In this document: one piece after another, positions 11,598 to 15,790 of the stretch
Numbering within the stretch: position 1 is the first letter of the stretch
Layout: each line of letters begins with the position of its first letter
Assembly: GCA_965261345.1 (NCBI GenBank)
Contig: OZ253449.1
Coordinates: forward strand, 256,001 to 320,000
Source of the DNA: Chloroflexota bacterium
GTDB lineage: Bacteria; Chloroflexota; UBA11872; VXNJ01
DNA: 64,000 nucleotides
Direction of reading: 5' to 3'
The notes under the pieces: generated by a model
What the model saw: the letters and a program-made list of their open reading frames with translations, nothing else
Databases searched by the model: none
Told to the model about the DNA's origin: nothing
Program-made: the position numbers and the translations under genes

Positions 11598-12265
11598 ATC
11601 CGGCAGTCCCCGAGACCGGGTCCAGCGAACACCGGGCGGATCCGAAGCCAAAACCAAACTTCGATCGCGCATTTGAAGCTGCCAGGCAATCGCCGGTCGC
11701 ACCGAGGCGCCCCCAATCGGGCCAGATCATGCCGCCACCTTGGGCCCAACGCCAACCGCCAATTGCGGATCGGCGGCCGTGGCCAAATCCGATCTGCATT
11801 CCGTTCATACAAAAAGGGGGCGGTCGCCATTGCTCCATGTGGCCGGACACGACTGCAATTGATGACGACTGCGGTAATTTCAGATTTGTCGCCATCACCT
11901 GGCCAAAATCACGATGCGGCACGATCTTTGACTAGAACGGCAACCATGACCGGGACCCTCGACACAATTCGGGCCAAACGAAAAACCGGCTGCGAACCCA
12001 TCCGCCGTCCCGGGAATCGGGGCGATGTCGGAACTCTGCTCGGGTTCTGGCAGTGGGCCGGATCCGACCTTGTCGGCAACACCATGCGGGGCTGGCTTGC
12101 CGAATACCTGGTGGCTCTGGATCTAGGAATCGCCGACGGGGCGCGAACTGAATGGGCCCCACATGACCTGACAATGGCTGACCGTACGCGGGTCGAGGTC
12201 AAGACCTCGGCCTACGTCCAGAGCTGGTCCCAGAAAGGGCATCCCCCCTGTACCTTGTATGTTCC

Positions 12266-12425
12266 AAATGGGAAGTCCCGGGTGCGGTAGGGCGCCTGTA
12301 CCTTGGTCCATTGAGACCGTTTTAAAGCACGCTCGCCGCACCCGGATCTCCCGGCGCATAGACCCCGAACAATTGCTCGGTGGGCTCTAGACCCCGTATT
12401 CGCAAGGAAGGGCGTAGCGTCGGGA
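12266..12425 (+). ncRNA. Bridge RNA of inner IS110
   Basis: Stem GGGTGCGG/CCGCACCC encloses LTG CCTGTACCT (12295-12303) and RTG TTTAAAG (12321-12327). A second loop holds LDG ACAATTGCT (12369-12377) and RDG GCAAG (12402-12406). RNA ends approximate. Confidence 0.8.
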
Positions 12426-13285
12426 GTAACTATAGGGAGTTTTACATATGTGCGAGGACGTATATGTAGGCGTCGACGTTGCCAAAGACACCATCGATGT
12501 CGCCCTCGGCCCCCAGGGCGAAGTCTTTACCCTGCCCAACTCGGCGGCCGGGTTCGGGGCGTTGATCAAGCGCCTCGAGAACTATCTGGTGGCGCTGGTG
12601 GTCATGGAGGCCACTGGCGGCTACGAGGAGCAGCTGGCCGACGAATTGGACGACGCCGGTCATGCGGTGGCGGTGGTGAACCCGGGCCGGATCCGGAGTT
12701 TTGCCCGTTCGCTGGGGGTCCTGGCCAAGACCGACGCCATCGACGCCAGGATAATCGCGCGCTATGCCGAGATGGTCAAACCCCCGGCAAGGGTCCAGCC
12801 GTCCAGGGCAGTCCGCACCCTGGCGGGACTGGTTGCCCGCCGCGGCCAGCTCATGGACCATCTCACCGCCGAGAAAAACCGGCTGGGGAGGCGGGTAGTT
12901 CCGCGTGTACGTGCCGACATCAGGCGCGCCATTGCCGGACTGGGGCGCCGCATCGCCACCCTTGACCGCGATATCGGCAAGCTGATTGAGGCCGACTCCG
13001 ATCTTGCCACCCGCAGCGCGCTGCTGACCTCGGTGCCCGGCGCCGGCCCGCAGCTGGCGGCAACCGCGATCGCCTACCTGCCCGAGCTTGGAACGGTGGA
13101 CGAGAAGCAGATCGCAGCCCTGGTAGGGGTTGCGCCCCTGAACCGCGACAGCGGCGCGTATAGTGGCCGGCGAACGACCTGGGGCGGACGCTCAAGGGTC
13201 AGGTCGGCGCTTTACATGTCGGCCCTGTCAGCCTCGCGCCACAACCCGGTGATCAAGGCTTTTTACGACCGGTTGGTGGAGAGCG

Positions 13286-15216
13286 TTCGCGGTAGGGACA
13301 CCGATTGCTCGGTGCCCCCCGCACAAATCCGTACGTGCGCGTTAACGCATACGGCTTTTAGCTCGGGTATTTGACGGCAAAGCGGTATGCGGGCCACGGG
13401 TGGAGGATTCGGGCAGGGGGAAGATGTGCGGCGCTCAAGGCGCGCAGTCGCTCCCATGGGAAGCGGTCGTTTTGCGAGCGGCGGCGGATGCTGTGTAGCC
13501 ACAGGCGCTCAAGCTCATGTTTGAAGCTTGAGAGGTGCCTGGAGCTGGTAGGAACGGCGTAGTAGCCGAACCAGCCCTGCAACACCATGCCGAGCCATTG
13601 CCCGGTCTCCGCTGGATCGTCGTGCATCGCTGCACGCAATCGCTCCTTGATCGCCTTCAGGGTGCGTCGAACGCGCTTGGCGATGGGCTTGCGCCCCAGT
13701 CCGAACCGTCCGTTTCGTTTTATCCGGCAGTAGTGAGTGAAGCCGAGGAAGTCGAACGTTTCCGGTCGCCCCTCGCCGCGCTTGCGGCGGCTCGCTTGTG
13801 CGTATCTGCCGAACTCGATCAGGCGGGTCTTGTGGTCTGCAAGCTCTAGTCCGTACTCTTTCAGCCTGTCCTGCAAATCCTTTGCAAATCTGGCCGCATC
13901 GCTGCGGTGTTGAAACGCCAGTACGAAGTCATCCGCGTAGCGGACTATATAGACCTCGCCGCTGGCCCGTTCGGGCCGCCATTCTTTGGCAAACCACGAG
14001 TCCAGGACTTTATGCAGGTACACGTTGGCAAGCAGCGGCGAAATCGGCGCTCCCTGCGGGGTTCCCTGCACTGTGTCGGACAGGACTCCGGCTTCCAATA
14101 CTCCGGTGCTCAGCCACTTGCGGATAAGGCGCAAGACTCTTCGGTCTCCGATACGTTCTTCCAGGAACGACATGAGCCGTTCGCGGTCGATTTGGTCAAA
14201 GAAGCTCTTTATGTCCGCGTCAAGAATCCAGTTGACTTTTCGGCGTTCGATGGCGTAGGCCAACGCGTCCAGCGCGTCGTGCGCCGACCTTTTTGGCCTG
14301 AACCCGTATGAGAACCCGGCAAATTCCGACTCGTAGATCGGGTCGAGGATTTGTTGACACACCGCCCGCTGGAGGATCTTATCCTCTATGGATGCGATTC
14401 CGAGCGCTCGCGTCCCCCCGTCCGGCTTGGGTATCTCTACCCTGCGGACGGGGGTCGCCCGGTAGCTCTGTCGGAGTACTCGGTCTTTTAGGTCGAGAAG
14501 GTTCTCTTCCAGGTTCTCCTCGTACATCCTCCACGTGATCCCGTCGGCGCCGGGGGCGGCTTGGGGCTTTAGCCCGTAGAACGCATCCCTTAGCGCGTCA
14601 AGGTCTACGTGGCGGGGGAGCGCGGTGAGTTTCTCCTCTGGGTTCTCCTTGGCAAATTGCCGTACCCGCTCGGCTCCGGGTGACACGGGGACCCACCCCT
14701 GGGTGTAGTCCGTGCCGGTGCCTTGCGGATTTCCCTTGCTTGCAGCCCTTCTCTCCAGCGGCTCCGCCGAGGACTGCTCCTCCTTGTTCGCCGCTTTCGC
14801 AGATACTATGGCCGCATCAGACTTCTGCTCGGCGTGCATCATCGGATTGCGAAACTCCTTATCTTCCCGATGCGGCCCCGGAGTTTGCGAGTACTCCGGG
14901 GCGCCGCGCAGATCTCCCAGTTCCCGGCATTGGACGTACGAACGTGCCTGGGTTCTTCGACACCGCAGAGCCCGGCGCTGACTGGCCCTTCGCGCCAACG
15001 CCGGTGTTGCCTTCGACCGCTTACAGGGTCTCGGCGCTCCGGAATTTATTCTTATTTCGGTGCTCAATAGCCCTGCCCGCCCGCGCCGCTGTCAACGCTT
15101 CATGCCCGGCCTCGCGACCGGTCACGCATGACTCGCGGAGTGCTGCGGATTGGCTCCTTTCCTTTCAGCACGCGGGACTTTCACCCGCTGTCCAATGCCA
15201 GTTAGACTGGCCGTTC
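13286..15216 (-). mobile_element. Group II intron (IIB-like, endonuclease-less IEP), antisense to the IS110 recombinase
   Basis: Domain V AGCCGTATGCGTTAACGCGCACGTACGGAT; DVI ending CCCTACCGCGAA; EBS1 loop GUAAGC at 15019-15024 complements 5' exon GCTTAC. Confidence 0.9.
13358..14842 (-). CDS. ltrA: Group II intron reverse transcriptase/maturase
   Basis: [22 protein letters not shown] and FDFLGF motifs plus X domain, no HNH domain. Likely start MMHAEQKSD. Confidence 0.92.
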
Positions 15217-15544
15217 GTAAGCCAAAAAAGGTGGCCCTGACAGCCTGCATGAGAAAGCTGCTGGTGATCCTGAACGCGATGCTGAGGAACGGCGAGTATT
15301 GGCGCGAGGAGTCCGCCTCGGGCTGAACGCCGGGCAGGTCCGATCGCTCTTGCGGGCAAGGTCCCTGGCGAAGCCATGCCCGGGATCGGGCTATTGCGGC
15401 GATTACGCATCCGGTTATCGCCTGTCGATCGGGCTGCGGTCACTATGAACCGCGGTCGGGGCGCTGGATCTATCCTCCCCTTTCTCCTGGACCCCTCTGA
15501 CCCCACCTCTGCCGGAATTGACAATCAAGACAATTGCTTTAGGT

Positions 15545-15790
15545 AGCTTCATCTGACTAAGCAATTGGGCATGCGCGATGCTCTGCTCAGCCTGGATGAA
15601 GTCAAGGTCAGCGGCCGGGAGTAACCAATCGCCCCTTGTGTCTTTTGAGCACCGTGGGGGGGACCCGTGCCCCGGTGCAGCTGGCCGCGGCAGATGCCCC
15701 GTGGAGAGTTTGCGTCTTAGAACGCCGGTACAGGGATTGGCAGGTGTCGTGGCGGACCTTCAATGCGATCAATACCATCGCGCACCACAC
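15545..15790 (+). ncRNA. Putative bridge RNA of outer IS110
   Basis: Donor guides: GTGGAGAGT (15701-15709) resembles the right end GTAGAGAGT; GGTACAGGG (15727-15735) is the reverse complement of left end CCCTGTACC. Target guides ATCGCCCC and GGGGGGG resemble the poly-C target. Confidence 0.65.

Follow-up and report, generated by a model that had tools for sequence, protein, structure and literature searches.

A 64,000-nucleotide (nt) stretch of the genome of a Chloroflexota bacterium (GCA_965261345.1, contig OZ253449.1, positions 256,001 to 320,000; the window) carries one insertion sequence (IS) of the IS110 group inside the left end of another. The inner element is named I-A and has a CT core; the outer element is named O1 (O1a for its copy in the window) and has a CC core. 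It is proposed, with considerable confidence on the sequence evidence, that I-A is an autonomous IS621-like IS composed of a 315-amino-acid (aa) DEDD/Tnp recombinase and a 5' bridge RNA, whose guides direct it into the left ends of outer-type (O-type) elements. The RNA-guided targeting of O ends by I-A appears well supported by the anatomy of the two elements, the matches between guides and sites, the distribution of the copies, the uninterrupted sites in relatives and covariation.

Four levels are nested in the window: a host open reading frame (ORF) is interrupted by O1, O1 by I-A, and I-A by an antisense group II intron. The features are the following.

11946..12245, plus strand: 5' part of the host ORF, from the ORF list, ending in the O1 left target.
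12246-12247, plus strand: left CC core of O1, followed at 12248-12255 by the first 8 nt of the O1 left end, CTGTACCT.
12248-17060: O1 as a whole element.
12256..15538, plus strand: I-A, with coordinates that take in the right copy of the CT core; 1352 bp without the intron.
12256..12447, plus strand: bridge RNA gene of I-A, formed by its 192-nt left non-coding end.
12448..13285, plus strand: I-A recombinase gene, first 279 codons, up to the intron.
13286..15216, minus strand: group II intron, antisense to the I-A recombinase gene.
15217..15326, plus strand: I-A recombinase gene, last 36 codons and stop.
15327..15538, plus strand: non-coding right part of I-A; it contains TTGACA (15518-15523), facing outward, and the right end with core, ACAATTG-CT.
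15539..15803, plus strand: rest of the O1 left end, with O1's own bridge RNA region.
15804..17045, plus strand: O1 recombinase gene, intact, 413 aa.
17046..17062, plus strand: O1 right end, GTAGAGAGT ending at 17060, and the right CC core at 17061-17062; this right boundary is common to O1 copies.
17063..17364, plus strand: host sequence resumes with the C-run right target of O1 (17063-17067), followed by the 3' part of the ORF.

O1 is split after its eighth base, I-A separating the first 8 nt from the remainder. The left junction (12255/12256) reads ...GGGCATCCCCCCTGTACCT / TGTATGTTCC, with I-A beginning TGTATG at 12256, and the right junction (15538/15539) reads ...GACAATTGCT / TTAGGTAGC. 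An initial annotation of this DNA had stated that removal of 12256-15538 leaves CCCTGTACCT-TTAGG, which is what the sequence reads, and all of its coordinates are correct when checked against the sequence. Its statement that the outer IS begins CCCTGTACC is refined here, since CCCTGTACC consists of the O core and the first 7 nt of the element and the left end proper starts at 12248.

The recombinase of I-A, read without the intron (12448-13285 joined to 15217-15326), has the 315 aa that had been predicted for it, the same length as in five intact copies elsewhere, and it is identical to the copy at genome position 20898 in 292 of 315 residues. An intact copy (L028:1501-2448) matches PF01548 at 1.3e-24 (residues 7-146) and PF02371 at 7.2e-20 (residues 191-273). 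The I-A protein aligns with the IS621 transposase (8wt6) over 302 residues (5-306 of 315; E 6.4e-43) and with the ISCro4 transposase near full length (E 6.8e-43); in the IS621 alignment the GxD, EATG, KTDxxDA and SG motifs are all matched in I-A, and we take these to be its catalytic residues. I-A has no terminal inverted repeats and shows a single core dinucleotide on both sides: the same CT precedes TGTATG and follows ACAATTG in all seven full copies of the genome, the six others ending exactly as the window copy does. By domains, motifs and ends I-A is classed as an IS110-group, IS621-like element. Its predicted circle junction would place TTGACA 17 nt from TATGTT, promoter-like by pattern match only.

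The window copy of I-A deviates from the others, being 94.6% identical to them, compared with 99.0-99.7% among those; the differences cluster at element positions ~200-600 and ~1000-1100, and in the leader it shows no difference from the L028 copy (100% identity). It could be of an older lineage or a recombinant.

The 192-nt leader of I-A is predicted to fold into two stem-loops (minimum free energy fold, z = -2.95). An alignment of eight leaders, A1, combines that of I-A with seven homologues, drawn from this genome and from four sister genomes. It shows a long conserved stem enclosing an internal loop, which bears a small apical hairpin, and after this stem a second stem-loop. The consensus structure of the eight contains 33 pairs with 93.9% of cells paired, a value reached by none of 500 shuffles (slid controls, 35-47%), and six of these pairs show a compensatory change. 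Two binding loops and four guides, namely the left and right target guides (LTG, RTG) and the left and right donor guides (LDG, RDG), are assigned in the leader.

About 12277-12346: target-binding loop.
12295-12303, plus strand: LTG, CCTGTACCT, hypervariable columns 40-48 of A1; covaries with the left flanks in relatives.
12321-12327, plus strand: RTG, TTTAAAG, a hypervariable block in A1; ideal partner CT-TTAAA.
About 12348-12430: donor-binding loop.
12369-12377, plus strand: LDG, ACAATTGCT, equal to the I-A right end and core (15530-15538) at 9/9 positions.
12402-12406, plus strand: RDG core segment, GCAAG, in a block conserved as GCAAG or GCGAG in A1.

The hypervariable columns that form LTG and RTG lie on the 5' and 3' sides of the internal loop of the conserved stem. 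The four guide assignments of the initial annotation hold in detail. LTG is identical at 9/9 positions to the left flank 12247-12255, that is, CCTGTACCT, the left target with the CT core; RTG forms 5 Watson-Crick and 2 rU:dG pairs with CT-TTAGG; ACAATTGCT at 12369-12377 is identical to the I-A right end; and GCAAG forms 4 Watson-Crick pairs and 1 wobble with CT-TGT of the I-A left end. The IS621-type layout that had been recognised is borne out by the recombinase match, the position of the guides in the internal loop of a conserved stem and their covariation with the flanks. In eight element/site pairs of relatives, 7-12 of the 12 non-core positions are paired, and in the control of 40 mismatched pairings the mean was 2.8 and the maximum 6. 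RTG pairs with the right flank at 7/7 positions in L012, L002, L003 and L030. LDG covaries as well, ACGATTG matching the right end GACGATTG-CT in I2.

I2 is a second inner-type family with 70% protein identity to I-A (genome 818268-821569, 1301497-1302795 and 146114-147412), and its guides, LTG AACCCCGCT and RTG GCCGTAG, match its three flanks, approximately ACCCCCG-CT-ACGGC. An Rfam search of 11500-17500 returned no plus-strand family for the leader at E up to 1. On the minus strand, RF02234 (Xanthomonadaceae small RNA sX15) is hit at 12269-12431 (model 1-159; 32.5 bits, E 0.013, gathering score 55), and this family may in fact represent a guide RNA region of the IS110 type, perhaps modelled on the opposite strand.

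O1 also belongs to the IS110 group by its domains, guides and core. Its recombinase matches PF01548 at 6e-36 and PF02371 at 3.7e-15, and IS621 at 2.1e-9 in the N-terminal part only; a second, 100% identical copy of the gene lies at genome 815126-816364. Three guides are placed in its leader.

15656-15662, plus strand: putative RTG of O1, seven G's (G7).
15703-15709, plus strand: putative LDG of O1, GGAGAGT.
15727-15735, plus strand: RDG of O1, GGTACAGGG, the complement of CC-CTGTACC.

The match between a candidate O1 LTG and the left target is poor. The left boundary CC-CTGTACC is common to 10 O1-type copies, and O right ends stop at GAGAGT, followed by CC and then by a variable right target that matches each RTG: AAGAAGG with CC-TTCTT in L045, GAAGGG with CC-CTTC in L034 and G7 with CC-CCCCC in O1. 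The boundaries of O and its CC core are set by this covariation of RTG and right flank. RDG covaries with the left end in the same way, GGTACAGGG going with CC-CTGTACC in O1 and GTATAGG with CC-TATAC in the O3 type.

These assignments bear on the most specific claim of the initial annotation, that the site of I-A overlaps the sequence read by the outer element's own donor guide. The guide it named, GGTACAGGG, is present in the outer leader at 15727-15735, and the left target of I-A (C-CTGTAC) with the CT core coincides with a core base and the right-donor arm of O, as the covariation of O1 and O3 confirms. LTG of I-A is complementary over 8 nt to the RDG of O, as RNA. After the insertion the O core and the 7-nt donor arm remain at the outer edge, and the bridge RNA and recombinase genes of O stand intact downstream.

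That the insertion adjoins the right donor (RD) of O also raises the possibility that the O recombinase and bridge RNA captured an I circle by a one-sided half-match at the right-donor arm. Two preprints lend this idea some background, in so far as their accessible parts go: one finds the internal insertion boundaries of expanded IS110 loci enriched for one-sided left donor (LD) or RD matches (10.64898/2026.08.14.744561), and the other reports half-match recombination for IS621 (10.64898/2026.08.31.748434). However, the crossover lies at CT, 7-8 nt inside O, and not at the CC core; CT is I's own core and is present at both I ends in 7/7 full copies; both arms of the site match the target guides of I (13-16 of 16 positions); and relatives of the I family obey the guide-flank rule at sites unrelated to O. 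We regard capture by O as highly improbable.

The genome is 2.39 Mb, a single-contig assembly rich in repeats, from a clade known from few genomes. Its blastn search gave seven full-length I-A copies including that of the window, one 5'-truncated copy and short fragments. Five of the full copies sit at the same nucleotide of an O-type left end and on the same strand as the O element, in O1a, O1b, O3, O4 and an O5 remnant, and these five are all the surviving outer-type left ends of the genome (5/5 occupied). O2 (genome 108961-110118) has lost its left part, the 5' part being truncated by another gene, and is unusable as an uninterrupted left end. A check of the other inner copies, proposed with the initial annotation, placed 4 of 8 readable ones in outer-type left ends, each at the position seen in the window (O1b, O3, O4 and O5), and 4 of 8 in the leader of an IS3-family element; no I-A copy or fragment with a readable site lies in unique DNA. 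Neither this check nor that of uninterrupted outer copies, described below, refuted the annotation's reading.

The fit between guides and sites was scored over 16 positions as Watson-Crick, wobble and mismatch. I-A guides score 16/0/0 on the O4 site, 15/0/1 on O5, 14/2/0 on O1a and O1b, and 13/1/2 on O3, compared with only 8-9 Watson-Crick pairs for the guides of a sister allele, I-B, on the same O sites. The genome was then scanned, with I copies removed, for the guide-specified 14-mer with an exact CT core, mismatches being counted over the other 12 target positions. The single site with no mismatch and the single site with one mismatch are both occupied by I-A, as are 2 of the 7 sites with two mismatches and 1 of the 34 with three; the guide-site match exceeds chance.

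The occupied O elements represent four lineages of 60-64% protein identity, and the I copies other than that of the window are 99.0-99.7% identical to one another; with hosts so divergent and inserts so alike, the insertions look separate and recent. A rival account has I inserted once and then carried from one O copy to another by homologous recombination or gene conversion. The near identity of O1a and O1b would allow them to exchange segments, and from copy to copy the I-A leader differs little or not at all. Against this, the recombinase genes of O1, O3, O4 and O5 have only ~65-67% nucleotide identity (81% over a 119-nt leader for O5 against O1), the sequence common beside the junctions is only ~13 nt, and the I copies in O1a and O1b are the most different pair. 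Spread from a single insertion is accordingly hard to credit.

In O4 (L028/L047, genome 22058-22100), only ~40 nt separate the I-A insertion point from the recombinase start, compared with 265 nt in O1, and O4 is therefore evidently without a bridge RNA region of its own. A further interruption, between 23119 and 24853, breaks its recombinase gene.

Uninterrupted left ends were found in the sister genomes. Five O1 copies of G002, with leaders 99.6-100% identical to that of the window, all read CC-CTGTACCT-TTAGG, the sequence that the initial annotation had required of an uninterrupted outer copy. Three copies of G006 (85% identical) begin CC-CTGTACCT-TTTAG, and three O3-like elements, L045 (G006), L035 (G003) and L034 (G005), read C-[CT]-ATACCT-TTT..., again uninterrupted. 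All 11 O-type left ends read in sister genomes are thus contiguous and without I; L039, a partial O-type match in G003 with no leader match and its left end unread, stands outside the 11.

In the five G002 O1 copies (loci L033, L038, L041, L043, L046 and L048-L052) the recombinase lies in two frames, split at residue 143/144; compared with the intact gene of the window, the parts show 97% and 99% identity, and the five leaders are identical or nearly so. The split could be a shared frameshift or programmed frameshifting.

Logan contigs of four runs (X1, X5, X9 and X11) were aligned to 11900-17300, contigs being records that cannot show circles or expression. Record 1 of X1 crosses from the host through O1's 8 nt to the I start with no differences, and record 6 of X1 and record 26 of X9 cross the I end into O1; X1 is not independent because it may be the source sample of the genome. 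Record 13 of X5 joins 12242 to 17061 with 5 other letters between and is an empty host site in a related strain, with a different left-arm sequence. I contigs without the intron are present in X1, X5 and X11 at depths of 86, 49 and 28, and in X9 at a depth of 8. Among the 15 of 23 joints listed, none joins 12255 to 15539, the joint that would restore the O1 left end.

The sister genomes also bear on whether I and O might be one composite, always mobile together, in which the agreement of guide and flank would only reflect an internal repeat. Both O1 copies of this genome carry I at the same place, and with the 7-nt donor arm of O still at the outer edge co-mobilisation is mechanically conceivable. 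The 11 of 11 left ends without I already contradict a composite, however, and I copies are also found away from O. The members of the supposed unit differ in divergence, too: O1a and O1b are 99.87% identical but their I copies only 94.6%, and I copies of 99.0-99.7% identity lie in O lineages of 60-64% protein identity. Little likelihood is left to the composite.

We propose the following mechanism for I-A. The element would excise as a circle joined ACAATTG-CT-TGTATG, its bridge RNA would be expressed and bound by the recombinase, and LDG and RDG would pair with the joined ends of I-A itself. The target loop would specify CCTGTAC-CT-TTAAA, that is, the second core base and the first 12-13 nt of an O-type left end, LTG pairing with the bottom strand and RTG with the top strand of O's end, and strand exchange would take place at CT, 7-8 nt inside O. 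At least five separate insertions, each co-oriented with O, would have occurred in this genome, if their independence is correctly deduced. Because the same bases must complement the right-donor guide of O, the landing site is expected to be conserved across O lineages and to travel with O. An IS end would be a favourable target of this kind: multi-copy, harmless to the host, renewed by transposition of O and kept constant by O's guide requirement.

The copies away from O require a separate account. Four of the nine readable I-A copies and fragments (two full-length, one 5'-truncated and one of 42 nt) lie in the 5' leader of an IS3-family element whose orfA matches HTH_Tnp_1 at 5.6e-15, within or next to an imperfect palindrome that closely precedes orfA. 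On these sites the I-A guides form only 8 Watson-Crick pairs of 16, so the insertions are unexplained by the element's own guides. By eye, neither arm of the sites resembles ACAATTG or TGTAT, and a half-match to the I-A donor arms was rejected as their cause. A better fit is offered by I-B, a degenerate element in G002, ~90% identical to I-A and flanked by the same IS3-type site, with LTG CATTCCCCT and RTG AATGAAG. Its guides score 15/0/1 on the IS3 site of copy c14k and 11/1/4 on that of copy c875k, and a complete I-B leader with a truncated gene is present in this genome (142294-142528). I-A and I-B differ in 4 of 9 LTG columns and 3 of 7 RTG columns, and in 2 of the 84 other columns among the first 100. 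We infer that I-B RNA may have acted in trans on I-A circles or that the leaders were homogenised later; trans action is plausible because the donor ends of I-A and I-B are nearly the same.

In the IS3 leader (genome 14004-14040 and 15393-15475, L056:760-830), a ~40-bp segment stands between the short inverted repeats CCCC[CT]T ... AA[AG]GGGG and occurs in opposite orientations among copies. I-A copy c14k is flanked by two IS3 5' ends, head to head.

The same copies could indicate that I-A is not specific for O but prefers C-rich ...CCC-CT-T... repeat sites, perhaps through a hairpin structure, with O as one class among them. The 4/9 readable sites in the imperfect palindrome favour such a preference, and a preprint asking about layers of IS110 specificity beyond RNA-DNA pairing, with a sequence-structure dual-match logic in its title (10.64898/2026.03.19.712850, as far as its accessible part goes), speaks in its favour too. 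The IS3 site, however, fits the I-B guides at 15/16 (c14k) and 11/16 (c875k) positions and the I-A guides at 8/16, a complete I-B leader is present here at 142294-142528, the I-B element of G002 occupies the same IS3-type site, and the O sites have no palindrome. A preference of this kind is improbable, though it retains more than a trace of likelihood.

Several observations weigh against guide-directed insertion of I-A into O ends. The IS3-leader copies, nearly half of those readable, and their poor fit to I-A guides are the first of these. The right-target match is uneven, with two mismatches at O3 and one at O5, and the donor loop has a weaker structure than the clear target loop: RNAalifold pairs LDG with RDG, and the inner part is less resolved. 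An X5 contig of O1 starts 10 nt before 15537 without the right end of I. The known range of I-A is narrow, none of the genomes of 40 relatives having it at 90% identity or more. Metagenome contigs were scanned with two exact patterns, the I-A target loop and an I-like left end preceded by ...TAC-CT, and yielded 0 stretches, a result that says little because the patterns are exact. The evidence is all drawn from sequence, from which the activity of I-A is predicted. In a related search, the N-terminal part of the recombinase had no close copy in genome contigs; the best match, at 79%, is in a Chloroflexota metagenome-assembled genome (L064), and the other long matches are at 53% or below.

The initial annotation had called I-A an RNA-guided hyperparasite of another IS110. 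The RNA-guided targeting in this phrase stands, on the guides, the copies and the covariation; harm to O, or exploitation of it, goes beyond the evidence. Most likely I nests in O as in a landing pad that renews itself and is neutral to the host, and the two may be mobilised together.

True hyperparasitism, for which we see a minor but real chance, would mean an O that is locked, its promoter hijacked and its guides possibly interfered with, and a clade that preys on IS by guide swaps. As to the lock, O could escape only by a change in its left end with a matching change in its own RNA. The one lineage to have done so is O3, with a G to A change in the left end and a compensating change in RDG; it forms a tolerated G:T wobble with the I-A guide and is still hit. 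As to the hijack, the predicted junction promoter of O (TTGACA-17/18 nt-TACCTT, by pattern match) has the crossover inside its -10-like hexamer, which is restored by the first base of I, so that a composite O::I circle would read into I first, a lead only; in the excised O::I circle the O promoter would then drive the I bridge RNA and recombinase first. The complementarity of I LTG and O RDG could let the two guide RNAs interfere directly. If the antagonistic reading is true, selfish elements turn programmable RNA guidance on one another, the prey is kept from escaping by the needs of its own guide, and the clade is a specialist predator of other IS that retargets by guide swaps, its sister allele being aimed at the leader of an IS3-family element.

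Bridge RNA (seekRNA) elements home to chromosomal repeats, integron attC sites and Tn21-type transposon ends. IS4321 and IS5075 reportedly insert in the inverted repeats of the Tn21 family, as Partridge and Hall are said to have described in 2003. I-A shares with them its place in the IS110/IS1111 superfamily and an insertion, specific in both site and orientation, in the end of another transposable element. IS4321 and IS5075 differ in belonging to the IS1111 group, in carrying the RNA downstream of the gene and in having inverted repeats in a subterminal position; they prey on a Tn3-family transposon, which a protein transposase recognises, whereas the prey of I-A is itself RNA-guided, and the bases targeted by I-A, unlike theirs, are those that the prey's own guide RNA must read. 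A target logo for IS4321 is mentioned in the accessible text of PMC11187229.

I-A resembles IS621 of Escherichia coli and ISCro4 in its homologous recombinase, in a bridge RNA in its left non-coding end and in a CT core that each of the four guide-DNA pairings includes. In I-A, as in those elements, LTG has the sequence of the left target's top strand, a rule given in the accessible text of Durrant et al. 2024 (PMC11208160). Unlike IS621, I-A has as its target the end of another IS110-group element, not a chromosomal repeat of the repetitive extragenic palindromic (REP) type, and I-A is known from sequence alone; unlike in IS621 and ISCro4, its RTG is 7 nt including the core.

A natural retargeting by replaced target-matching RNA segments is described for ISEc11 and ISXne4 in the accessible text of Siddiquee et al. 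2024 (PMC11187229). I-A and I-B likewise keep the RNA scaffold and swap the target-matching bases, which match different flanks; they are closer (~90% identical in the leader) than ISEc11 and ISXne4 (72% protein identity), and unlike these both target other IS, an IS110 end and an IS3-family leader, and both occur in one genome. The accessible part of the preprint on expanded IS110 loci (10.64898/2026.08.14.744561) describes two IS110 modules in tandem and co-oriented, as here, and loci that accept further insertions; their growth is ascribed to the resident system with one-sided donor matches, whereas here the target loop of the incoming element matches both arms.

In the literature no report was found in which a bridge RNA targets another IS110's donor arm; supplements were outside that search, and PMC11208160 Supplementary Data 2, for example, a list of natural target motifs per guide pair, may hold IS-end targets. 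The present case stands apart in that one bridge RNA naturally targets the donor arm of an element that has a bridge RNA of its own. The occupation of 5/5 sites in this genome, compared with 0/11 left ends in sister genomes without this guide allele, constitutes a natural test of specificity, and the I-A/I-B pair is suited to asking how few guide changes retarget an element and whether bridge RNA acts in trans. For annotation this means that IS110 genes found in tandem can belong to nested elements, each with its own targeting, and not to duplications.

Further observations concern the surroundings of the nest. The 101 aa of the 5' part of the host ORF, searched against Pfam, matched no family. 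When O1 is deleted in silico, 10 C's and a frameshift remain (126 aa), and exact restoration of the host ORF is not claimed. Of the O1 copies read, 9/10 are followed by CC and at least five C's, the exception being L040, which ends GAGAGTCCCTACC; their left flanks have no consensus (window 17061-17067; loci L048-L052, L032 and L037). O1 thus seems to be aimed mainly at C-runs through its right arm. At L037 (G006:C1:1842656-1846903), the right C-run of an O1-like copy (87% protein identity) is followed after ~30 nt by the right end of an I-like element (...CTTGACAATCAAGACAATTG), and an I-like recombinase gene (58% identity) lies just upstream (1842636-1843457). This appears to be the reciprocal nesting, an outer type inserted in the C-rich 3' non-coding end of an inner-type element.

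The innermost level is a bacterial group II intron with ribozyme domains and a reverse transcriptase. Rfam RF02005 is matched on the minus strand at 14951-15181 with 164.5 bits (gathering score 49) and RF00029 at 13285-13359, also minus, with 36.6 bits, under its gathering score of 40; the reverse transcriptase ORF (13358-15067, minus strand) matches RVT_1 at E 9.1e-40. The ends of the intron are set by the intron-less I-A copies and the intron-less contigs in X1, X5 and X11. Because an antisense intron is unspliceable from the recombinase mRNA, the window copy of I-A cannot make recombinase.

The usual 5' end of a group II intron is GUGYG; the introns of this genome read GAAC[AG]GCC at theirs. 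There are nine copies in the genome (G000:C1). Two of them, 96% identical, lie antisense at the same codon of the window I-A and of I2 (819310-821233), two directly after GTAGAGAGTC at the right ends of O2 and O3, four ~10 codons into IS3-family orfA, and one (123674-125596) has no recognised IS context. The group II introns of this genome, too, home into insertion sequences.

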